This document shows, piece after piece, positions 1 to 60,501 of a DNA stretch of 60,501 nt. Positions within the stretch are counted from its first letter, which is position 1, and the number at the start of each line of letters is the position of its first letter. The stretch spans positions 1 to 60,501 of the forward strand of contig JAIRLD010000035.1 in NCBI GenBank assembly GCA_031259665.1, given 5' to 3'. The position numbers were made by a program, and so were the translations under genes. Under the pieces are notes generated by a model. That model ran no database searches and was not told the origin of the DNA. It saw nothing but the letters and a program-made list of their open reading frames with translations. Source of the stretch: Puniceicoccales bacterium (GTDB lineage: Bacteria > Verrucomicrobiota > Verrucomicrobiia > Opitutales > LL51).

Positions 1-205
1 CGCGCAAACCCTGCGCAAATTGCGCAGGGTTTGCGCGTCACTTAATTTTTCTTTTTTTAAATTAGCGGCCCCGCGGCGAAGCCGCGGGCCGGGCCTTTGG
101 CCCCTTGCGGATTGATCCAGTGGCGATGCCACTGGATCAATCCGCAAATCCAGGTCCAGGAGGCGGTGCCTCCTGGCGAGGATTCTAAGGGCGCGCAGCC
201 CTTAG
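1..205. repeat. Composite GC-rich multi-hairpin intergenic repeat, cluster R1 (cut by window edge)
   Basis: Perfect 37-nt palindrome at 1-37, then a T-rich spacer and hairpins at about 67-90 (cccgcggc-gaa-gccgcggg), 107-145, 156-176 and 185-205 (ctaaggg-N7-cccttag). The same modules recur in the same order at 4268-4765, 7503-7763 and 60355-60501, and inverted at 58805-59172. Confidence 0.85.
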
Positions 206-223
206 ACCCAAAAGGGAAAATTC

Positions 224-3235: not shown

Positions 3236-4213
3236 TCAAACAATTCTTTCCACTAACATTTGCGTTTCGAGTCCCGGAAAGCGTTCGGAAAAAATTTGTG
3301 ATTCCGGAGTAGAATTGAGGAGATGGGTAACCATACCCATTTTGGCGTCCAAATTATCGATTAGAGAAACAAAAATTGCCTCGGGCGTCGCCGGTAGAAC
3401 GGCCGCACCATATTCCAATTGGCCCTGATGGCTGAGAATGATATGTTCGAGGCGTTCAAGCCAATTGGGATCGAGTTCATTTTTAATCCCAGCACGGCGA
3501 ACGATCCGATAACCGAGGACGATATGCCCCTGTAAGTTACCTATTTTGGTTCGCGAAACGGCGAGGTCGCCCTCGTATTCGTCCACCTTGCCCACATCGT
3601 GCAATAGCATGCCCGCTAGGGCAAGATCACTGGGAATATCCGTGTAAAATTTCAACAGCGCAACCCCCGCACGCGTCACATGTACCGTATGTTCGAGTAA
3701 TCCGGATTTATAGGCGTGGTGCATGGATTTTGCCGCAACACTCGTAAAAAACTTATCGCCAAGTTCCTCGAGAACCGCATGGACAGTATTTTTAAGTTGT
3801 GGATTCTGAATGCTTTCGACATAGGTATAGAGTTCCACCTTCAAGTCCTGAGGATCTTCCGCGGTTGTTTGTTCCAACTGGGCATACCAGTTACCCGCCT
3901 GAATTTCTTTATCCGACAGTCTACGAGTAGAGAGAATATCGGGACTAAAAGTGCCTTGGTAGTAGCGGCTCATACCTTCGATGAAAATGATATCGCCGGG
4001 AGTACTCGCTTGGAAAAAGTTAAAGGTGGATGTATTAGAAAAACTAGTAAAACTAAAGGAAGAGAACTTATCGCCGACTTCGATTCTGAGGAATTCGGAA
4101 CCATTTTTAGCATTTCTCCGTTCGATTTTTTTGATAACGACGATGGATTTAAAAACCACCGTTTGACCTTCGGGGATCGTTTTAAGTTCGAGAGTATTTG
4201 AAAATTTTTCCAT
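3236..4213 (-). CDS. yhaM: YhaM-like 3'-5' exoribonuclease (OB-fold plus HD domain)
   Basis: 325 aa with an N-terminal OB-fold-like segment (VVIKKIERRNAKNGSEFLRIEVGD) and an HD-domain signature (HTVHV...LLHDVGK). Length and architecture match YhaM. Confidence 0.7.
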   Translation of the reverse strand: MEKFSNTLELKTIPEGQTVVFKSIVVIKKIERRNAKNGSEFLRIEVGDKFSSFSFTSFSNTSTFNFFQASTPGDIIFIEGMSRYYQGTFSPDILSTRRLSDKEIQAGNWYAQLEQTTAEDPQDLKVELYTYVESIQNPQLKNTVHAVLEELGDKFFTSVAAKSMHHAYKSGLLEHTVHVTRAGVALLKFYTDIPSDLALAGMLLHDVGKVDEYEGDLAVSRTKIGNLQGHIVLGYRIVRRAGIKNELDPNWLERLEHIILSHQGQLEYGAAVLPATPEAIFVSLIDNLDAKMGMVTHLLNSTPESQIFSERFPGLETQMLVERIV

Positions 4214-4267: not shown

Positions 4268-4765
4268 CCGCTCCGGCTGCCCAGAGGGTTGCGGGAGTCC
4301 AGAAGGCGGAGCCCTCTGGACTCCCGCAAGGAGGCTGTTTGTGGGGCTCCGCCCCATACCCCGCAAGGAGTCACAGACTCCTTGCCCTCCTTTGGCGGCC
4401 GGCCCTCGTCGCAGTCTGCGACGAGGGCCAGCCGCAAGGTCAAGTTTTTTCTCTTAGTTACGCGCTATCCCTGTACAATTTATACAGGGATAGCGCGTAA
4501 ATTAATCTTTTTTTTCTTTTTCAGGCCTGCCCCGCGGCGTAGCCGCGGGGCAGGCCTTTGGGCCCTCTGCGGTTTGATCCAGTGGCATCGCCACTGGATC
4601 AAACCGCAAGGGTCCAAAGGACCAGCCCGGCACTTCGTGCCGGGCTGACTTTTTTTATGTATATTTTTATGCGCAATCTGAGCGCAATTTGCGCTTAGAT
4701 TGCGCAGTTAAAAAAAAGATCAAGCTGCGCGCAAACTCTGTACAAATTACACAAGGTTCGCACAG
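4268..4765. repeat. Composite multi-hairpin repeat, cluster R2 (most complete copy)
   Basis: Ordered hairpins include caaggagtc-aca-gactccttg, ggccctcgtcgc-agt-gcgacgagggcc, a palindrome at 4458-4500, gcctgccccgcggc-gta-gccgcggggcaggc and one at 4569-4607. It continues with agcccggcac-ttc-gtgccgggct, a palindrome at 4670-4706 and a degenerate palindrome near 4727-4763. Confidence 0.85.
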
Positions 4766-4946: not shown

Positions 4947-5831
4947 ATGTCAATGCGTAAATATATTAACAGAGTAAGCAGTAAGCCAGCTAATGTCAAG
5001 CTAAAAAATAAAAAATCTTTCACCCTACTCGAAGTCGTCTTCACGATCACAATCATCGGTATCTTATTAGCTATTTTTTTGCCCGTAATGAGTGCAATCA
5101 AACTCAACGCCCAAAAACTAAAAGATACTGCCAATCTGAAAAAAATTGCAACAGCCTGGTACGAATATGCGGTAAATCAAGGCAATTCTATGGATCTTAG
5201 GGAAACCAGTCCAAAAGACGAATGCTCGGATTACGGTATATGGTTTGCTCTGTCTCTGGCTGGCTGTGCCCAAACAACCGGCAAATTCCATCGATCAAAA
5301 AGCTTCTTAAATGACCCTAATGCATACGTCTCACCAAGCGATAAATACGCCTCCGAAGTAGTTAGCGAATATATCGCACGCGGTTCGGATAATACGGAAG
5401 AAAGTGACTTAATATATAATTTCGGCTGGAATCACAAAAATAATGATTTTAATGCCGAAAATGATACCGCTACGTCAAACGCTAAATTCTTTTTTAGCTA
5501 CTGTACCATCGGTAACCTCGATGCTTCTGTTCCTCTCGTAACCACCCCTCTTGCCTTTACGCGCGGGTTAAAGTCTAATGGCACTTGGGATGAAAAATAT
5601 GGACTCTATGGCTCAAAAGGCGGCTATGTCGTCTTTTGCGATGGTCATATAACCTGGTTTGATGGTAGTAAACCAGCAAAATTTCTTCATTGGAATGGGG
5701 AACAATATACAACAGATATTCGACAAGCAATACCAAATGTAGCAAAAATCGGCAATGGAAGCGTACAAACTTCACTAACTGGACAATATGATAATATAGT
5801 TATCTGGGGAAACGGTACCGGTGGTGACTAA
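4947..5831 (+). CDS. Prepilin-type N-terminal cleavage/methylation domain protein (type II secretion/type IV pilin-like, PVC-style)
   Basis: The N-terminus KKSFTLLEVVFTITIIGILLAIFLP matches the class III signal/methylation motif. The C-terminal GGYVVFCDGHITWF resembles the conserved 'F-x-DG-H/S-V' end of DUF1559-type pseudopilins. Confidence 0.75.
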   Translation: MSMRKYINRVSSKPANVKLKNKKSFTLLEVVFTITIIGILLAIFLPVMSAIKLNAQKLKDTANLKKIATAWYEYAVNQGNSMDLRETSPKDECSDYGIWFALSLAGCAQTTGKFHRSKSFLNDPNAYVSPSDKYASEVVSEYIARGSDNTEESDLIYNFGWNHKNNDFNAENDTATSNAKFFFSYCTIGNLDASVPLVTTPLAFTRGLKSNGTWDEKYGLYGSKGGYVVFCDGHITWFDGSKPAKFLHWNGEQYTTDIRQAIPNVAKIGNGSVQTSLTGQYDNIVIWGNGTGGD

Positions 5832-5920
5832 AAAAATACTTATAAATGTTATGTTTTTTGCGAAAATATAAATTATTGTCATTTTTTTATATACCGCCCA
5901 CCTCATTCTTTACATAAATA

Positions 5921-7438
5921 TCAAAACAATTTCCTATCCAGGGATCGATAATGGATGGCCTCCAGTAAATGCCTTTCCGAAATATTTTCCGCTTCCTCTA
6001 AATCTGCAATCGTCCGCGCCACCTTCAATATGCGATCGTGAGCCCGTGCCGATAAGCCTAACGTCTCTATCGCCGATGTTAAAAGTAATTCACAGGCTCC
6101 ACCTAAAGAACAGTACTCCCTCAAATCTCCCTGGCTCATCTTCGCATTCGTAAAATTATTGGCCCGTTTTCGCCGCTTTTGAACCTCCCGAGCCCTAATT
6201 ACCCGCCCCCGTATTACCGCAGAATTCTCCGCCGGCTGTTGATAACGCAATTCCGATGTGTCAATCGGACGCACATCGACGTGAAGATCGATGCGATCCA
6301 ATAATGGCCCACTAATCTTCGAACGGTAACGCTGAATCTGTCCCGGTGAACAAAGACACTCCCGCTTCGAATCTCCTAAAAGTCCACAAGGACACGGATT
6401 CATCGCCGCTATTAACATGAAAGAACAAGGAAATTGTACCTTCGCCGCACTGCGCGATATGGCAATAAATCCGTCCTCCAAAGGCTGTCGCAATACCTCT
6501 AACGTCGATCGCCGAAATTCCGGTAGCTCATCCAAAAATAATACACCATTGTGCGCTAAAGAAATTTCCCCGGGTATCGGATATTTCCCTCCCCCCAGTA
6601 ACCCAACGTCGCTAATCGTGTGATGCGGCGCCCGGAATGGTCGCCTAACTTCCCCAATCGAATTCACTCTCTGACACGAAGAGTATATGGATAAAATCTC
6701 TAAAAATTCCTCCAACGTCGGCGTCGGCATAATCGTCGGTATACGCTTCGCAATCATCGACTTCCCAGATCCCGGCGTCCCAACCATCAGTAAATTATGC
6801 CCACCCGCTACGGCAACTTCTACCGCCCTCCGTAACGCTTTTTGTCCCTTTACATCGGAAAAATCAACGTCAAAATAACGCTCCATCATCTCTACCGTAA
6901 ATCGCATATTCATCTTCGATAACACTACCTCATGGGACAAAAATTGAACGACCTCCTCCAAAGAGTTCGCCGCGAAAATCTCAATGTCATGAACAAAAGC
7001 TGCCGTCTCCGCAGAAACCTTCGGCAAAATTAACTTCTTACGATATTTTCTCGCCTGCATGGCTAAAGCAATACATCCCGCAATGGGTAGCAATTCCCCA
7101 GATAAATTCAATTCCCCAGCAATGATAAAATCATTCAAATCAGGTAAATTTGCTTGCCCCGTGCTCTTAATCACCCCTAACGCTATCGGTAAATCGTAAA
7201 TCGGTCCCTCTTTTCGTAAATTCCCCGGCGATAAATTGACAACAGTACGCGTCTTTGGCATCAAAAATCCATTGTTCATCAGCGCAGAACCTACACGATC
7301 CTGCGATTCTTTAACCGCTGCATCCGGTAGCCCAACGGTGATAAATCGGGGCTCCCCAGGCAATCCCGTATTAACTTCAACTAAAATGGGTATACTTTCA
7401 ATGCCAACAACCGCTCCAGAATGAACCTTCGATAACAT
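5921..7438 (-). CDS. comM: YifB/ComM family Mg-chelatase-like AAA+ ATPase
   Basis: 505 aa with an N-terminal Lon-protease-like ChlI domain ([18 protein letters not shown]), a Walker A motif (GTPGSGKS), a Walker B motif ([11 protein letters not shown]) and a C-terminal Mg-chelatase domain. Confidence 0.9.
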
Positions 7439-7502
7439 GTATCCATACCGCTAATATGTTTAAAAAATGTCAAGAAAAAATATTAAAATAATCTCAATGG
7501 TT

Positions 7503-7763
7503 TCGCCCTCTGGACTCCCCAAAGGAGGTTGCTGTGGGGCTCCGATTATCCAGGGGGGGGCTCCTCCCCCCTGACCCCACGCAAGGAGTCATGGCCTCCT
7601 TGACCTCATTTTGCGGCCGAGCCCTGCGCAAGTAAGCGCCGGGCTCGGCCGCAAGGTCAAGTTTATTTTAGTTAAGCGCAACTCCTGTGCAGTTTGCACA
7701 GGAGTTGCGCTTAACTTGATTTTTCTTTTTTAAATCAGCTGCCCCGCGACGCAGCCGCGGGGG
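7503..7763. repeat. Composite multi-hairpin repeat, cluster R3
   Basis: Contains caaggagtc-atg-gcctccttg, gcggccgagccc...gggctcggccgc, a palindrome at 7671-7713 (ttaagcgcaactcctgtgca-gtt-tgcacaggagttgcgcttaa), a T-rich spacer and ccccgcg...cgcgggg. Module order matches R2. Confidence 0.85.
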
Positions 7764-7962
7764 CTTCAAAAATATCCCCCTATTAGACTGCGTTATAATC
7801 GCAGAAATATTTTGATCCGTCAAGTATTCTTTTGATTTTTTCGATTTTCATGCCCTCCAAACTATTTCCCATCATCGACGAAACCTATGGACGCGAAAAA
7901 ATTTTTTAATCCAATAATCCAATTGCCAAAGGCGTTAAATCGTTTTTCCTTCGGCAAAGGTT

Positions 7963-9492
7963 ATGAAGAAATTTTATCTCACCACAGCCATCGATTATGC
8001 CAATGGACATCCACATATCGGCCACGCCTATGAGAAAATTTTGGCCGACGTAATTTGCCGGACAAAACGCTTACTCAACTATGACGTGCACTTCCTAACG
8101 GGCCTCGATGAACACGGACAAAAAGTCGAACAAACCGCTAAAAAACACGGTATTACCCCCCAAATACTCTGCGATTCCATTGCCCAAGAATTCATCGATA
8201 TGTGTACCTTTCTCCATATCTCCTACGACGATTATATCCGTACCACCCAGCCCCGCCATAAAGCGATTGTTCGGGACATTCTCCAAAAACTTTTCGACAA
8301 AAATGATATCTATAAAGCAGAATACACGGGATTTTATAGCACGCGCGTGGAACGATTTCTTCAGGAGAAAGATAAGGTGGATGGCGTTTGGCCGGAAAAC
8401 GAATTCGGTCAGGTCATGGAAATTACGGAGACGAATTATTTTTTCAAATTAAATCCCCATAAACAATGGCTCATCGATTACATCACCTCTCACGAGAATT
8501 TTATTTTCCCAAAATTTCGCGCCAAACAGGTGCTGGAATTTTTAAGGGAAGATATCAATGACCTCTGTATCTCACGCCCTAAAAACCGCCTTGCCTGGGG
8601 AATCGAATTGCCCTTTGATCCGGAATACGTAACCTATGTCTGGTTCGACGCCCTGATTAATTATATCTCCGCAGTGGGCTACGGCACGGAAAACTTCTCC
8701 GAATTTTGGCCAGTAGATTACCACGTCATTGGCAAAGATATTCTCGTCCCCGCTCACGCCATCTATTGGCCAATTATGCTCCATGCTCTCGATCTACCAA
8801 TGCCTAAAACGTTTCTAGCTCACGGTTGGTGGCTCTGTTCCGGAGAAAAAATGTCCAAAAGTGTGGGCAATGTGGTCGATCCGCTCGACTACGCTAAACA
8901 ATTTGGCCCAGATGCCTTCCGTTACTTCGTAATCCGTGAAATGACGGTTGGTCAAGATAGTGATTTTTCTCATGAACTCTTCCTGTCACGCTATAATAAT
9001 GATCTCGGTAATGACCTCGGTAATCTCGTAAGCCGAACTCATAATATGCTCCAACGCTACTGCAAAAACACTATTCCAAAAATTGCCCCATTGGAATCCC
9101 CGGAAAATGATCTGATTAACCTCTGGTCCAAAACCCGCGATAGTACACTCGATGCCTATGATCGACTCCAATTCCATACGGCATTAGAAGATATTTTCAC
9201 ATTCATAGGAGCTATTAACAAATTTTTAGAAATCCGTGCCCCCTGGAAACTCGCCAAATCTGATAAACCCAAAGATCGGGAACGCCTAGATACAGTACTG
9301 GCGGTTTCTTCCGAAGCAATCCGTCTAGCGGCAACGATCCTAGCTCCTATCTTACCTATTGTTTCTCAACAAATTCTTGAAATCTTTCAGGTCAAAGCAA
9401 TCGCTTGGGGGAAACAATTGGAATGGAATAATGAATATCTGTTCAATCGATCCCTCTCAGCAGACTCAATTATCCTCTTCCCAAGATTCTAA
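7963..9492 (+). CDS. metG: Methionyl-tRNA synthetase (short form, no C-terminal tRNA-binding domain)
   Basis: Class I HIGH motif (HIGHAYE), KMSKS motif and a typical MetG core and anticodon-binding region. It ends ...LFPRF. Confidence 0.95.
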   Translation: MKKFYLTTAIDYANGHPHIGHAYEKILADVICRTKRLLNYDVHFLTGLDEHGQKVEQTAKKHGITPQILCDSIAQEFIDMCTFLHISYDDYIRTTQPRHKAIVRDILQKLFDKNDIYKAEYTGFYSTRVERFLQEKDKVDGVWPENEFGQVMEITETNYFFKLNPHKQWLIDYITSHENFIFPKFRAKQVLEFLREDINDLCISRPKNRLAWGIELPFDPEYVTYVWFDALINYISAVGYGTENFSEFWPVDYHVIGKDILVPAHAIYWPIMLHALDLPMPKTFLAHGWWLCSGEKMSKSVGNVVDPLDYAKQFGPDAFRYFVIREMTVGQDSDFSHELFLSRYNNDLGNDLGNLVSRTHNMLQRYCKNTIPKIAPLESPENDLINLWSKTRDSTLDAYDRLQFHTALEDIFTFIGAINKFLEIRAPWKLAKSDKPKDRERLDTVLAVSSEAIRLAATILAPILPIVSQQILEIFQVKAIAWGKQLEWNNEYLFNRSLSADSIILFPRF

Positions 9493-53511: not shown

Positions 53512-54846
53512 ATGAAAGTGATGAAGTTAGTAACTATTTTTTTGTGGATCATTGTTGGATTTGTGGTAATGTTATTTGTTAAGTCTCATTACTCGCCCGT
53601 ATCTCTACCAAAAATAAAACTGGGCATCGATGTATTGGAAGAACGGGGGTTCGACATACTGCAAAATAAAAACATTGGCATTCTGACGAATCAGGCAGGA
53701 GTCGATTCAAAGGGTGAGTTGACATGGTCCATCTTAAAAAATACGCCCGGTATTCATTTGAAAGCTATTTTTGCCCCCGTACACGGTTTGGAAGGCAAAT
53801 TCATGTCGCTGGAAACATTTTACAATGACGAAATCGATGACATTCCCGTATATTCTGTTTTTGCATCCAATTCCCGTCCGAAGGATGAATGGCTGAAGGG
53901 ACTGGATACTGTAGTGGTGGATTTGCAAGGGGTAGGGATTCGCTACTACAACTATTGGGCATTCATGGTTTACATGATGGCGGCCTGCTTTGAAAATGGG
54001 ATTGAAGTCATCGTCTTAGATCGACCCAATCCACTGGGTGGACATTACATAGGTGGACCCATTATGGATCCGGAAAATACGTCCGTTTGGGGACCCATTG
54101 CGGGGTTACCGCTTTTTCACGGATTGACGATCGGTGAACTGGCCAATTATTGTAAAAATTTACCCGGTGGAATCGTTGCCCATAAACTTACGGAAACGGG
54201 AGTGCCTCATTTGGGACTGGAGGTATCTCCTGAAACACTTGCTGAAGGGAAATTAACCGTCATTCCCATGAGAGACTGGAAGCGCAACATGCTTTGGCAG
54301 GATACAGGATTGGACTGGGTTGGAACTTCACCTTATATTACCAATCTACAGTCCGTTTACGAATATGCCTTTACGGCATTATCTTCTTTTGTATCCATGA
54401 GTTATTACGAAACATGTTCTTTTTTAAAGTTCGAACCTTCCTGGGAAACAAGGCGACCGTGGTCAATATTTTCTTCCCGCTACGTCACAGCAACGGCAAT
54501 TATACGCTATTTTGAAAATGAAATCCCTAAAAAGCAGAAGCTAGGATTTTCTTTATCGGTTACAGGAAAGCATCACAATTCCGTTGAAATTTCAGTAAAA
54601 GATATTCGGAAAGTTACTCCCGGACTTTTCGGTTTAGAGATGTTAGCCCTTTCTCAAAAATATGCACGTTTCTATATCGATAATCAGGAAAGTATTCAAC
54701 TGGTTGCTAGTCACATGGGTGATAAAGAATTGTTAAACAAACTAAAAAAATCAGAACGCATTAGTGTGAATTATTTTAGAGATAAATGGGCAAATCAAGC
54801 CTTGCAATTTGTCGAAAAAGTCAAACCCTACCTTTTATATGAATAA
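53512..54846 (+). CDS. DUF1343 family protein (NamZ/YbbC-like exo-beta-N-acetylmuramidase), membrane-anchored
   Basis: N-terminal TM/signal (LVTIFLWIIVGFVVMLFV), then LGIDVL...IGILTNQAGVD, VVVDLQGVGIRYYNY, VLDRPNPLGG and GLTIGELA, which are the hallmark DUF1343 blocks. Confidence 0.8.
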   Translation: MKVMKLVTIFLWIIVGFVVMLFVKSHYSPVSLPKIKLGIDVLEERGFDILQNKNIGILTNQAGVDSKGELTWSILKNTPGIHLKAIFAPVHGLEGKFMSLETFYNDEIDDIPVYSVFASNSRPKDEWLKGLDTVVVDLQGVGIRYYNYWAFMVYMMAACFENGIEVIVLDRPNPLGGHYIGGPIMDPENTSVWGPIAGLPLFHGLTIGELANYCKNLPGGIVAHKLTETGVPHLGLEVSPETLAEGKLTVIPMRDWKRNMLWQDTGLDWVGTSPYITNLQSVYEYAFTALSSFVSMSYYETCSFLKFEPSWETRRPWSIFSSRYVTATAIIRYFENEIPKKQKLGFSLSVTGKHHNSVEISVKDIRKVTPGLFGLEMLALSQKYARFYIDNQESIQLVASHMGDKELLNKLKKSERISVNYFRDKWANQALQFVEKVKPYLLYE

Positions 54847-54849
54847 TTC

Positions 54850-56328
54850 TTGCTATTTCATGAGGTATTGTTTTTTTTTGTATTGGTATTTCTAGGGGGA
54901 TGCTGTAGAGGAAATCATCTGGAGCTGGGTATTGATATCGCTCAGAAGCAAAAGTTTTCGATTTTAAAAAAGAAGAAGGTGGCGCTTCTGACTCATTCTG
55001 CCGCAATGGACAGCAAGGGGAAATTGACGCTTGATATTCTTGCGGAGAGTAATGCTTTTCAGTTAAAGGCCGTTTTATTACCGGAACACGATGGCGGCTT
55101 CGATGACAAAAAATTGGAAGAACTTAAAAAGAAAAAGATCGATGTCTATTGTACCCATACGTCGACGAGCCGTTCACCACAAATAGAATGGCTAAAAGAC
55201 ATCGATATAGTCGTTGCGGACGTACATGATATTGGAATGCGTTATTACACTTATATTGCCAGTGTACTTTATGCTATGGCTAAGACTTTTAACGCGGGAA
55301 AGGAATTTATAATTTTTGACCGGACTAATCCGTTAGGTGACTCCATAGGCGGTCCGATTGTGAATGAAAAATATGTTTCTTTTTTAGCGCCAGTTTCTAG
55401 AATGCCTTTACGCCACGGTATGACGGTTGGGGAAATGGCGAATTACATTAAAAATCGCAGAGAAAATTTTGAAGTCAAATGCGACTGTGGAATGAAAGAA
55501 TGTGATCATGGTATTTTTTGCGACAAGGCAACATTAAAAAAGGGGAAATTAACAATTGTCAAAGTAAAGGGCTGGAATCGTAAAAAAAACCTCACGGAAA
55601 CGGGATCTTACAAGAAGGATTCAAAAATCGATTTTTCCCCATGGATCAAAAATGTTGCTTCTATTTTTGATTATGCAACGCTTTCCTTTTCGGTACTTTT
55701 GGCGAGTAGTTCCATTGATTTTATCGATACGCATAAAAATCCTAAATTTCCCGAAAGAAATTTCAAAACATTCGCATCGCCCCACATGAAATCTTCGGAA
55801 ATTTTAGACCATTTAAAAAAGCGATATCCGGAAAGCCTTACGGGTTACACGCTTGTTCCCACGAAAATCGAGAGAACAGTGGCGGGAAAAGTGGAAACAC
55901 TGGATGGGTTAGATCTAACGATTAAAAATTTCTCACAGACGAAACCGGATTTTTTGAATCTTGCGCTCTATTCGCTGGCGCAGGAATGGGTGCCAAAATG
56001 TGACTGGGAAGCGTTTGAAAAGACCATTGCTACGGGAAATTCCACGCAAGCGACGGCGGCAGCGCCTCCACAACCTAACGCAGTGACTCCCCTTTCGACG
56101 CGTGATTTGAAAAAATTGACATCGGATCAGCAAAAAGGTTTGCGGAAAGCGAAATGGGATCGGCTTACCCAATCGCAGCGGAAGCTGCTGCAAAAGCACA
56201 TCGGTGACGATGAGTTTCTCAATAAATTATTTAATGGCGAATCAATCGATGTGGTATATTTTCGTAACAAGTGGGATCGCGAAGCGACTAGTTTTTACAA
56301 CAAAACTAAGAAACATTACTTCTATTAG
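54850..56328 (+). CDS. Second DUF1343/NamZ-like paralog, lipoprotein-like N-terminus, extended C-terminus
   Basis: TTG start. The N-terminus VLVFLGGCC is lipobox-like. The blocks LGIDIA...VALLTHSAAMD, VVADVHDIGMRYYTY, FDRTNPLGD and GMTVGEMA follow. Confidence 0.75.
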   Translation: MLFHEVLFFFVLVFLGGCCRGNHLELGIDIAQKQKFSILKKKKVALLTHSAAMDSKGKLTLDILAESNAFQLKAVLLPEHDGGFDDKKLEELKKKKIDVYCTHTSTSRSPQIEWLKDIDIVVADVHDIGMRYYTYIASVLYAMAKTFNAGKEFIIFDRTNPLGDSIGGPIVNEKYVSFLAPVSRMPLRHGMTVGEMANYIKNRRENFEVKCDCGMKECDHGIFCDKATLKKGKLTIVKVKGWNRKKNLTETGSYKKDSKIDFSPWIKNVASIFDYATLSFSVLLASSSIDFIDTHKNPKFPERNFKTFASPHMKSSEILDHLKKRYPESLTGYTLVPTKIERTVAGKVETLDGLDLTIKNFSQTKPDFLNLALYSLAQEWVPKCDWEAFEKTIATGNSTQATAAAPPQPNAVTPLSTRDLKKLTSDQQKGLRKAKWDRLTQSQRKLLQKHIGDDEFLNKLFNGESIDVVYFRNKWDREATSFYNKTKKHYFY

Positions 56329-56392: not shown

Positions 56393-56468
<76 letters not shown>

Positions 56469-58804: not shown

Positions 58805-59172
58805 AGGGCAGAGCCTTCTAGGACTAAGGGCTGCGTGTCCTTAGAATCCACGCCAGGAGGCACCGCCCCTGGACCTGGGTTTGCGGATTGATCCAGTGGC
58901 TTTGCCACTGGATCAATCCGCAGGGGCCAGAGGCCCGCCCCGCGGCGAAGCCGCGGGGCTGCTAATTTAAGAAAAGAAAAATTAAGTGACGCGCAAATCC
59001 TGCGCAAATTGCGCAGGGTTTGCGCGTCATTAAAGGAAAAAACAAGTCAGAGAGTCTATTCTTGCCCCTTACGGCCGAGCCCGGCGCAGCATGCGCCGGG
59101 CTCCGGCCGCCGAAGGAGGTCAAGGAGTCCATGACTCCTTGATGGAGCCCAGGGGGCGGAGCCCTCTGGGCA
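58805..59172. repeat. Composite multi-hairpin repeat, cluster R4 (inverted relative to R1/R2)
   Basis: It contains the reverse-orientation series of the same modules: ctaaggg...ccttag, ccaggaggc...gcccctgg, the 39-nt hairpin at 58883-58921, ccccgcggc-gaa-gccgcgggg and a palindrome at 58988-59028. These are followed by gccgagcccggcgc-agcat-gcgccgggctccggc and caaggagtc-cat-gactccttg. It overlaps the ogt 3' end. Confidence 0.85.
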
Positions 59173-59650
59173 GAATTTTGTGTTTTACTTCAAGGGTAAG
59201 TAATTTTTGTTTTAGGTCCAAACCACCTCCGTAGCCGACGAGATTTCCCGAAGTTCCGATGACGCGATGGCAGGGAACGATGATGGGAATGGGATTATTA
59301 TGGTTCGCCATACCAACGGCACGGGCACCTTTTGGAATACCAATTTGCTTGGCAATTTCCTTATAAGAGCAGGTCACACCATAGGGAATTTTAATCAACC
59401 GTTCCCAAACGCTTTTCTGAAAATTTGTCCCCTTCAATAGAATTTGAATGTTGAAAACTTTTCGTTCACCGCGTAGATACTCCTGGATTTGATGAAAAAC
59501 ATTTTTTATTTCCTTTGTTTCACATTCGACAAATTGATCGCTTTCCAATGAATTTAGACGATCTTCATAAAAAATATTTGTTAAAAATTTTTCTTCCATT
59601 GCAATTGCAATTCGCCCTACTTCGGTTTCGTAAAAATAAATATTTTGCAT
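59120..59650 (-). CDS. ogt: Methylated-DNA-protein-cysteine methyltransferase (Ogt/MGMT)
   Basis: Active-site PCHRVIG, helix-turn-helix YKEIAKQIG and GGGLDLKQKLLTLE. The last 22 or so codons (VKHKILPRGLRPLGSIKESWTP) are encoded by repeat cluster R4. Confidence 0.9.
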   Translation of the reverse strand: MQNIYFYETEVGRIAIAMEEKFLTNIFYEDRLNSLESDQFVECETKEIKNVFHQIQEYLRGERKVFNIQILLKGTNFQKSVWERLIKIPYGVTCSYKEIAKQIGIPKGARAVGMANHNNPIPIIVPCHRVIGTSGNLVGYGGGLDLKQKLLTLEVKHKILPRGLRPLGSIKESWTP

Positions 59651-59667
59651 TGTACACCTTCGAAAAA

Positions 59668-60396
59668 ATGATTCATTGCTTTATGCAATTGGAGATTAAA
59701 AAGCAACTATATGAACTCACCGATCGGGATTACCAGAAATTTTCACAAAAATTAAATCCCGATGGAAAAAATATTCTGGGCATCCGATTGCCGAATTTGC
59801 GTAAAATAGCCAAGCAAATTGTAAAATCCGATTGGGAAACTTATCTCCGTACAGCTACAGACGATTCCTTCGAAGAAATTTTGCTCCAGGGCCTTGTTAT
59901 CGGTTATATTCGCACTCCCATCGAAAAATACTTACAATTAATTAAAGATTTCATTCCCAAAATCGACAATTGGGCAATCTGTGATACCTTTTGCGGAACG
60001 ATAAAAATTAGACCTAAGGATAGCGACATTGTTTGGAATTTTTTACAACCATTTTTCCGAGATGATCGGCCATTTTTCTTACGTTTTGCCCTAGTCATGC
60101 TCTTTAAGTTTATTGATGAAAAATATATTGCTGATATTTTTGCAACTATTTCTAAAATTCACTCCGATAATCGTTACGTCAAACTTGCCATTGCCTGGTT
60201 AACCGGGGAGTGCTGTGTCCATTTTCACGAGAAAACAATTAAATTTTTGGAGTCTAAAGTGCTCGATTCCTATGTACAAAATATCGCCATTCGAAAAATT
60301 ACGGAATCTTTTCGCATTCCCTTTAATGTTAAAATACGGATAAAACAATGCAAACCTGCCAGAGGGCTCTGGCTACCCAGAGAGCTCGGCCGCTAG
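59668..60396 (+). CDS. DNA alkylation repair protein (AlkD-like HEAT-repeat family)
   Basis: YQKFSQKLNPDGKNILGIRLPNLRKIAK, EEILLQGLVIGY and IDNWAICDTFCG are typical of the DNA_alkylation family. I moved the start to ATG 59668 (or 59683) to avoid overlap with divergent ogt. The last 15 or so codons lie in repeat cluster R5. Confidence 0.75.
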   Translation: MIHCFMQLEIKKQLYELTDRDYQKFSQKLNPDGKNILGIRLPNLRKIAKQIVKSDWETYLRTATDDSFEEILLQGLVIGYIRTPIEKYLQLIKDFIPKIDNWAICDTFCGTIKIRPKDSDIVWNFLQPFFRDDRPFFLRFALVMLFKFIDEKYIADIFATISKIHSDNRYVKLAIAWLTGECCVHFHEKTIKFLESKVLDSYVQNIAIRKITESFRIPFNVKIRIKQCKPARGLWLPRELGR

Positions 60397-60501
60397 GGTC
60401 AAGTTAGCCCCCGCGGCTTCGCCGCGGGGGTTGCTTTTTTTATTTTAATAAAAGTGTTTTTTTAAATCACCGGCCCCGCCCTCTCGTCGCTTCGCGACGA
60501 G
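60355..60501. repeat. Composite multi-hairpin repeat, cluster R5 (cut by window edge)
   Basis: ccagagggctctgg, ggccgc...ggtcaagtt and cccccgcggc-ttc-gccgcggggg are followed by a T-run (terminator-like on the plus strand). It then continues with ggccccgccctctcgtcgc-ttc-gcgacgag... Confidence 0.8.

Follow-up and report, generated by a model that had tools for sequence, protein, structure and literature searches.

A composite palindromic repeat between the genes of a lower-termite-gut Puniceicoccales lineage

The contig JAIRLD010000035.1 of Puniceicoccales bacterium (GenBank assembly GCA_031259665.1; all 60,501 nucleotides on the forward strand, hereafter the window) carries clusters of GC-rich hairpins between its genes. 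An earlier note, made from the sequence alone, had read them as a modular repeat family under selection for structure. The question raised by this locus is therefore what kind of element the clusters represent. We found that five regions of the window are copies or fragments of one non-coding element of ~360 nt, which is multiplied in one sublineage of lower-termite-gut Puniceicoccales. With a probability of about 0.7, we regard it as a lineage-specific, non-coding, interspersed composite palindromic repeat, of the same kind as the repetitive extragenic palindromes (REPs), bacterial interspersed mosaic elements (BIMEs) and miniature inverted-repeat transposable elements (MITEs), whose stems are kept perfect and flipped by template switching at replication.

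Architecture and distribution of the repeat

Alignment of the window copies with copies from a related genome gave the module order H0-H1-H2-H3-(H4)-H5-T tract-H6-H7-H8-H9-H10. The unit is composed of about ten different GC-rich, near-perfect palindromes, short conserved linkers and one T-rich spacer. Single modules measure 21-43 nt, with nearly perfect stems of up to 18-20 bp and loops mostly of 3 nt. The linkers are conserved, non-palindromic and polar, and one motif, CCGCAAGG, is recurrent among them. Profile matches of 200-350 nt (E 1e-60 to 1e-114) include the non-palindromic linkers and the spacer in the same order, and no coding gene was found inside the clusters. The hairpin sequences quoted in the earlier note are present where it had placed them. 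Its claim of the same modules in the same order throughout stands for Copies A, C and E and for positions 4268-4650 of Copy B (Table 1), but not for Copy F, which is partial and rearranged.

The window has 13 perfect GC-rich hairpins (stem of at least 9 bp, stem GC of at least 55%), and every one of them falls within the five clusters, which occupy 2.5% of its length. The GC content is 58% in the clusters versus 42% in the rest of the window. Folding gave z-scores of -15.9 for the minus strand of 58805-59175 treated as DNA and of -19.9 for 4268-4765 treated as RNA. Taken together, the concentration of hairpins, the GC contrast and the folding scores exclude a chance origin. A repeat search of the window recovered the clusters as direct and inverted repeat families. 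The forms seen were full-length copies, left and right blocks without the centre (H4-H7), right blocks only and left blocks only, some copies having alternative modules in the H6, H9 and H10 slots; the repeat decays by loss or exchange of whole modules. At locus L025 of a related genome, the H8 slot is occupied by a different hairpin with an 18-bp stem and a 3-nt loop (TCGTCCGGCACCTCGGGC...) between recognisable neighbouring modules, its arm being identical to that of H8 at 8 of 18 positions (counted by eye).

Copies are also present outside the window, whereas the earlier note had named a restriction to it as a refuting observation. An exact pattern scan of 185,579 species genomes for H8 (GATCCAGTGGCNNNGCCACTGGATC) returned 24 loci, all in one metagenome-assembled genome (MAG) from the lower-termite gut, Puniceicoccales bacterium Pcl387_bin18. 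This fragmented MAG contains at least 27 exact H8 copies, and many of its contigs end within copies, as expected of a dispersed repeat. Positions 58820-60501 of the window are orthologous to part of it with 91.5% identity, which points to a sister species as the source of the window. In the window and 146 kb of Pcl387_bin18 (207 kb), a profile search detected 67 non-overlapping segments in 52 clusters, the matched sequence amounting to 9.5 kb of the MAG sample and 1.25 kb of the window. The element is also present in five further relatives (L025, L027, L030, L031 and L032; ComM 87-91% identical), drawn from Joint Genome Institute (JGI) termite-gut-type metagenomes and another MAG. These relatives and Pcl387_bin18 likewise contain perfect GC-rich hairpins, whose density per 10 kb is 1.9-12.8 at the ComM loci of the five and 2.15 in the window. 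The loci L083, L028 and L084 (ComM at 80%, 77% and 71% identity; 53 kb in total) gave neither a profile match, even at E = 1, nor a perfect GC-rich hairpin. We found no description of this repeat family in the literature on Puniceicoccales, Nucleococcus and Verrucomicrobia REPs.

A scan of metagenome contigs with the H2 pattern yielded 50 loci: three had a weak profile match over the matched hairpin only, 46 had none, and a single one, L060, showed more of the element. At positions 367-425 of this unrelated contig (Ga0315281_10403314), an isolated H1-CCCGCAAGG-H2 block is found, the rest of the element being missing. The two-hairpin block H1-H2 may exist elsewhere as a smaller unit.

All 52 clusters of the window and the MAG sample are intergenic, overlap being limited, if present, to gene ends. 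The median distance is 23.5 nt for the 46 element ends that face gene 3' ends and 99 nt for the 31 that face gene 5' ends, the latter values peaking sharply at 71-81 nt. A typical copy thus begins ~20 nt past a stop codon and ends ~75-80 nt ahead of the next start codon, just outside the -35 box; at ComM, this distance puts the element directly upstream of the conserved TTGACA box. These distances indicate that copies fill the space from a stop codon to the next promoter. The end facing the gene 3' end is the right one in 27 cases and the left one in 19, so that orientation relative to transcription is close to random.

Comparison of ComM loci provided a filled and an empty site. The spacer between MreB and ComM measures ~105-115 nt in L083, L028 and L084 versus 505 nt in L032, and the extra ~390 nt correspond to an element block inserted into A/T-rich sequence immediately 5' of the -35 box. 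The element orthologous to Copy C is present in L025, L027, L030, L031 and L032 and absent from L028, L083 and L084; the copy that follows the gene of an FAD/NAD oxidoreductase in the window is absent from L083. The gene adjoining the ComM promoter varies among close relatives (MetRS, MreB/MreC or a pseudouridine synthase; L025, L027 and L030-L032 versus window 5900-7963). An element stands at each ComM junction whose flank is sequenced, the sequences of L027 and L030 ending inside it, which suggests repeat-associated rearrangement. Both window copies that could be compared with Pcl387_bin18 are conserved in place, indicating that the expansion is older than the split between the window and this MAG.

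Paired changes and inversion of hairpins

The compensatory stem changes reported in the earlier note proved to be real in shuffle tests of H8, H5 and H3. In H8, 98.1% of the cells are paired and 7 of 18 pairs have changed on both sides; in H5, the corresponding values are 93.5% and 11 of 18. For neither hairpin were the observed values reached in any of 500 shuffles. H3 has 94.6% paired cells and at least five pairs changed on both sides, both figures being lower bounds because one pair of the structure string falls on a gap column. Its number of pairs was reached in 3 of 500 shuffles, and its paired cells or covariation score in none, the further pair types of H3 being the one measure excepted from the 0/500 result. 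Folding of the whole-element alignment gave 63 pairs, 22 of them covarying, of which all but one lie in local hairpins, and no long-range helix was predicted in this fold.

An RNA made from one strand should tolerate G.U pairs and purge A.C mismatches. On the top strand of the element, single mismatches in H2, H3, H5, H6 and H8 comprise 42 G.T and 37 A.C; H9, H1 and H7 were left out of this tally as their counts are unreliable in view of the alignment register. A T-G pair at 58988-59028 had been taken as a wobble meaningful only in a plus-strand RNA. The pair is indeed there, but it carries no strand information, as the MAG orthologue is the exact reverse complement and the G.T and A.C mismatches are balanced.

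This comparison of Copy E with its orthologue L014 shows H5 to be the exact reverse complement over 39 nt, an inversion that explains both the moved mismatch and the changed centre base. Between the same two copies, the H6 loop reads TTC versus GAA and the H0 loop CTCCG versus CGGAG, and H3 differs by two compensated pairs. These differences indicate that hairpins have been inverted in place on a time scale of ~8% sequence divergence. The loop variation, which had been described as free, follows the same pattern: cGATg and cATCg are reverse complements, and the 12 loop triplets of H8 include five such pairs (GAT/ATC, AAC/GTT, GAA/TTC, AAT/ATT and GAC/GTC; P about 0.0007 by simulation). Reverse-complement loop pairs were also found in H3 (two) and in H5 (three).

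Template switching at replication in inverted repeats is reported to produce homogenisation of the arms, multi-base compensatory changes and inversion of the spacer or loop (PMC8794818, PMC8604942), which is just the pattern observed here among copies and among orthologues. Since this process is known to leave paired changes combined with inverted loops, covariation alone is no proof of selection on structure. According to the mechanism we propose, the palindromes would extrude as hairpins in single-stranded DNA at replication. Template switching across a palindrome would copy one arm from the other, leaving paired ("compensatory") changes and perfect stems, and could by the same route invert loops or whole hairpins. 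Most of the covariation would then be a by-product of mutation, to which selection for stable hairpins in either strand may have added. Template switching is a mutational process and not an element family, and it accounts for the upkeep of the hairpins, not for the spread of the element. For the spread, the leading candidate, by analogy, would be an HUH/Y1 enzyme, similar to the REP-associated tyrosine transposases (RAYTs), acting in trans on single-stranded hairpins, or else recombination-based copying.

Copies in the window and their surroundings

The copies of the window, their modules and the genes next to them are listed in Table 1, together with the consensus of each module. The open reading frame (ORF) of Ogt/MGMT extends 53 nt into Copy E (59120-59172, minus strand), and its last 17 codons and stop (LPRGLRPLGSIKESWTP, then the stop) are encoded by H0-H2. 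The sequence of this tail is different in the orthologous MAG copy.

Table 1. Copies of the repeat in the window, with their modules and neighbouring genes, and consensus of the modules.
Feature	Position	Strand	Description	Neighbouring genes
Copy A	1-215	+	right ~55% of the element, truncated at the window start; profile 163-359, E 1.3e-60	FAD/NAD oxidoreductase gene (224-1321, minus), its stop codon 25 nt from the end of the copy
Copy A, modules			H5 palindrome 1-37; T-rich spacer 38-65; H6 66-90; H7 91-103; H8 105-147; H9 149-178; H10 184-206	
Copy B	4268-4765	+	nearly full copy and two extra H5-type palindromes; profile 8-331, E 3e-87	divergent HD-domain gene (3236-4213, minus) and pilin-like gene (4947-5831, plus)
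Copy B, modules			H0 4291-4327; H1 4341-4357; H2 4363-4385; H3 4396-4435; H5 4458-4500; T tract 4501-4522; H6 4523-4557; H8 4568-4608; alternative H6-type hairpin 4623-4647, then T7 (terminator-like)	
Copy B, extra H5-type palindromes			second 4670-4706; third, degenerate and inverted with an A tract, 4710-4762	
Copy C	7503-7763	+	left and centre parts, without H7-H10; profile 8-252, E 1.4e-63	directly upstream of the promoter of ComM (5921-7438, minus)
Copy C, modules			H0 remnant; H1; extra G/C hairpin 7551-7575; H2 7582-7602; H3 7613-7651; H5 7671-7715; T tract; H6 7740-7762	
Copy E	58805-59172	-	full-length, inverted; profile 25-359, E 8.7e-106; orthologous to L014 7645-8000	
Copy E, modules			H10 58824-58844; H9 58853-58872; H8 58882-58922; H7 58925-58937; H6 58937-58959; spacer; H5 58988-59028; H4 about 59037-59060; H3 59072-59108; H2 59120-59140; H0 59149-59172	
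Copy F	60355-60501	+	partial, rearranged, cut by the window end, without H5; orthologous to L014 6290-6450	DNA-alkylation-repair gene, at whose stop codon the copy begins
Copy F, modules			H0-like 60357-60372; 3' part of H3 with GGCCGC(A/T)AGGGTCAAG linker; H6 60408-60430; T-rich spacer; H6-type hairpin from 60472	
H0			CCAGAGGGCTCCGCCCTCTGG	
H1			GTGGGGC-TCC-GCCCCAC	
H2			CAAGGAGTC-NNN-GACTCCTTG	
H3			18-bp stem, GCGGCCGAGCCCGGCGCG...	
H4			optional module	
H5			long palindrome, GCGCAAACCCTGCGCAA-N-TTGCGCAGGGTTTGCGC; followed by the T-rich spacer	
H6			GCCCCGCGGC-GAA-GCCGCGGGGC	
H7			GGGCC-TNT-GGCCC	
H8			GCGGWTTGATCCAGTGGC-NNN-GCCACTGGATCAAWCCGC	
H9			module between H8 and H10	
H10			CTAAGGGC-GCGCA-GCCCTTAG	

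Several other features of the window were recorded. A single ORF of 8945 aa covers 12074-38911 on the minus strand; its two ends, which were tested, gave no Pfam domain save a sub-threshold EspA-like match. It lies close to a TPR protein and to an export-gate gene of the FHIPEP (SctV/FlhA) type, in a region that includes 11562-12158 and 40246-42351 (both minus strand), and because of these neighbours its predicted product may be secreted, as a giant protein, or related to type III systems. Short paralogous genes without Pfam match form a tandem family at 42700-48200, in which the upstream region of each unit and its AT-rich terminator-like hairpin (AAAAAACCGGAGACTTGAAAATCTCCGATT) are conserved. 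In-frame tandem repeats with a period of 12 nt are found at 50919-51087 and 50251-50349 (GGTGCCGGTGTC... and AGGAGGGGCCTC...), in ORFs without Pfam match that encode low-complexity repeat proteins. Two adjoining paralogues of NamZ-type exo-beta-N-acetylmuramidase lie at 53512-56328 (plus strand), followed by tRNA-Lys(CTT) at 56393-56468.

Known families, rival explanations and significance

The likeness to REPs, BIMEs or MITEs proposed in the earlier note is a reasonable one for a single dispersed, modular, multi-copy family. As in the REPs and BIMEs of Enterobacteria and Pseudomonas, the modules are GC-rich, hairpin-forming extragenic palindromes in many copies: REPs are short (20-40 nt) imperfect palindromes, extragenic and of high copy number, and the lengths of 21-43 nt, the 52 of 52 intergenic clusters and the 27 or more exact H8 copies in the MAG agree with this. 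Further likenesses are the position mostly just downstream of genes in either orientation, the mosaic clusters with conserved linker motifs and variably present modules, the lack of terminal inverted repeats and target duplications, and the paired changes that keep the stems. A BIME, however, repeats one REP type in alternating orientation, whereas the present unit has ten different palindromes of fixed order and polarity; it does not fit the BIME definition and is, as had been claimed, more elaborate than classic REPs. Its stems are also longer than REP stems. The tag of REPs is not conserved either: inspection of the aligned modules showed GTAG in none of them, and CGTC flanks H5 in a few copies only (e.g. 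window 1-40 and 58988-59030, and L014), the others having GTAA, GGCA or TTAA. GTAG REPs have been reported in Opitutus terrae (PMC3733652), and assignment to the GTAG/CGTC-tagged REPs of that study was rejected on the lack of a conserved tag. In the available sequence no RAYT gene was found, and no transposase Pfam domain was present in the scanned ORFs of the window or among the Pfam assignments of the genes called in L025-L032, L083 and L084. On this evidence, the repeat cannot be assigned to the REPs that are mobilised by RAYTs.

MITEs such as Correia/NEMIS, ERIC and RUP resemble the repeat in being non-autonomous, non-coding, 100-600 nt long and dispersed between genes, in being co-transcribed with neighbouring genes and in their ability to supply gene ends. 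Their defining features are terminal inverted repeats and duplications of the target site. For the present repeat, local alignment of one end against the other scored within the shuffle range in 8 of 9 full copies, and no direct repeat was found at the only clean filled/empty site (L032 versus L083, L028 and L084) or in the flanks of nine copies, so that a classical MITE was rejected. The BOX elements of Streptococcus pneumoniae are modular, with boxA, a variable number of boxB and boxC. Like our repeat, they are intergenic, strongly folding composites with variably present modules and no transposase of their own, but they have three module types instead of ten and belong to another host phylum, and no sequence relation is expected; we know of no description of hairpins inverted in place in BOX. 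The Rickettsia palindromic elements (RPEs) are likewise palindromic repeats expanded in a host-associated lineage and can supply coding sequence, as does Copy E for Ogt. They differ in being single long palindromes with a CGTC tag inserted in frame inside genes, whereas the copies described here are intergenic or at gene ends only.

Searches with Rfam 15 gave tRNA-Lys as the only match in the window at the gathering threshold; at a relaxed threshold, the element regions produced sub-threshold matches only, mostly to generic hairpins such as microRNA precursors. In the absence of a match at the gathering score, a known Rfam family was rejected. A structured RNA cassette under selection at the RNA level would be transcribed within 3' untranslated regions (UTRs) or as a small RNA, with hairpins that stabilise the mRNA and with H5 and its U tract as terminator. 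It would fit the strong covariation of H8, H5 and H3, the start of most copies within ~25 nt of a stop codon and the loops skewed to one orientation, and the CCGCAAGG motif could form a GCAA tetraloop. On the element top strand, H5 with its T tract scores as an intrinsic terminator, and 4623-4647 with T7 shows the same pattern. However, as gene 3' ends are faced now by the right and now by the left end of the element, about half of the copies would be transcribed as the terminator-less strand; many copies run opposite to the upstream gene or are flanked by divergent genes, and at Copies B and C, which have such flanks, there is nothing to terminate. Free loss or exchange of modules also speaks against such a cassette, as do the short loops and the lack of an Rfam match. 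The balance of mismatches, the use of both orientations, the inverted loops and hairpins of orthologues and the restriction to local hairpins speak against a generic large structured RNA, and they lend no support to selection on an RNA structure or to a plus-strand RNA as the meaning of the wobble pair. We consider an RNA cassette unlikely.

The perfection of the palindromes and their symmetry on both strands would suit arrays of sites bound by dimeric proteins, be it a recombinase or, as at BIMEs, nucleoid-associated proteins, gyrase or IHF, and kept palindromic by selection for this binding; such arrays would organise the chromosome or mediate rearrangements. An element is present at each breakpoint where gene order around ComM differs in close relatives, and BIMEs are known to bind such proteins (PMC2817692). 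Sequence-specific sites would not be expected to vary freely in their arms while pairing is kept, as in the H8 slot of L025; moreover, ten different palindromes would require many different proteins, and no cognate gene was seen nearby. Such arrays are highly improbable in our view. Practically no weight can be given to a few independent palindromic terminators that are alike by chance or convergence, without common origin. Single hairpins, e.g. that at 4623-4647 followed by T7, do resemble ordinary terminators, but 52 clusters in 207 kb, the copies between divergent genes and the long profile matches, in which linkers and spacer keep their order, speak against this explanation. It is refuted by the repeat families, the profile matches and the modular forms in fixed order; the earlier note had listed it among the outcomes that would refute its own reading.

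It is very unlikely, if somewhat less so than binding-site arrays, that the repeat is a new kind of mobile or self-propagating unit in which the fixed order of ten slots, conserved in geometry and free in sequence (e.g. H8), is functionally required and not historical. One possibility would then be mobilisation of the hairpin string as single-stranded DNA by a putative HUH-type or other enzyme that senses geometry and not sequence, and another a transposase-independent spread through replication template switching and recombination; less likely, the top strand would encode a modular guide or scaffold RNA used by a system acting in trans.

Our preferred reading, a composite palindromic repeat with stems maintained by template switching, has to be weighed against several observations. 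With neither terminal inverted repeats nor target duplication, the transposition mechanism is conjecture. A tblastn search of 289 kb of the clade with two Y1/RAYT consensus queries returned nothing (best E = 1.5), which is a weak negative. Just one clean filled/empty site was found, and the conservation in place of both orthologous copies compared means that there is no sign of recent mobility. Loop orientation is skewed in some modules (H6, GAA 18 versus TTC 4; H3, TTC 15 versus GAA 2; H1, TCC only); together with the conserved polar linkers, this makes a strand-specific constraint or recent common ancestry possible. Finally, the element is 92.9% identical between orthologues and thus not more diverged than third codon positions (85-92%), a value compatible with some constraint, simple recency being also possible.

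Effects of the composite repeat on its host would be secondary. They probably include hairpins in 3' UTRs, one strand-specific module resembling an intrinsic terminator (H5 with its T tract), the replacement of gene 3' ends and homology for genome rearrangement. Should a mobilising enzyme be found, the repeat would stand out among the substrates of REP-like mobilisation by its complexity. The family also calls for caution in the use of covariation. In perfect DNA palindromes, template switching yields paired substitutions and seemingly "free" loops, and here one and the same hairpin occurs in opposite orientations at orthologous positions. Evidence of the R-scape type alone would mislabel this repeat as a structured RNA. 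In an uncultured lineage of Verrucomicrobia from the termite gut, the family is the mark of a recent expansion. Its copies break MAG assemblies, sit at synteny breakpoints of ComM and rewrite at least one gene 3' end, and are therefore relevant to studies of assembly, annotation and rearrangement in these symbionts.

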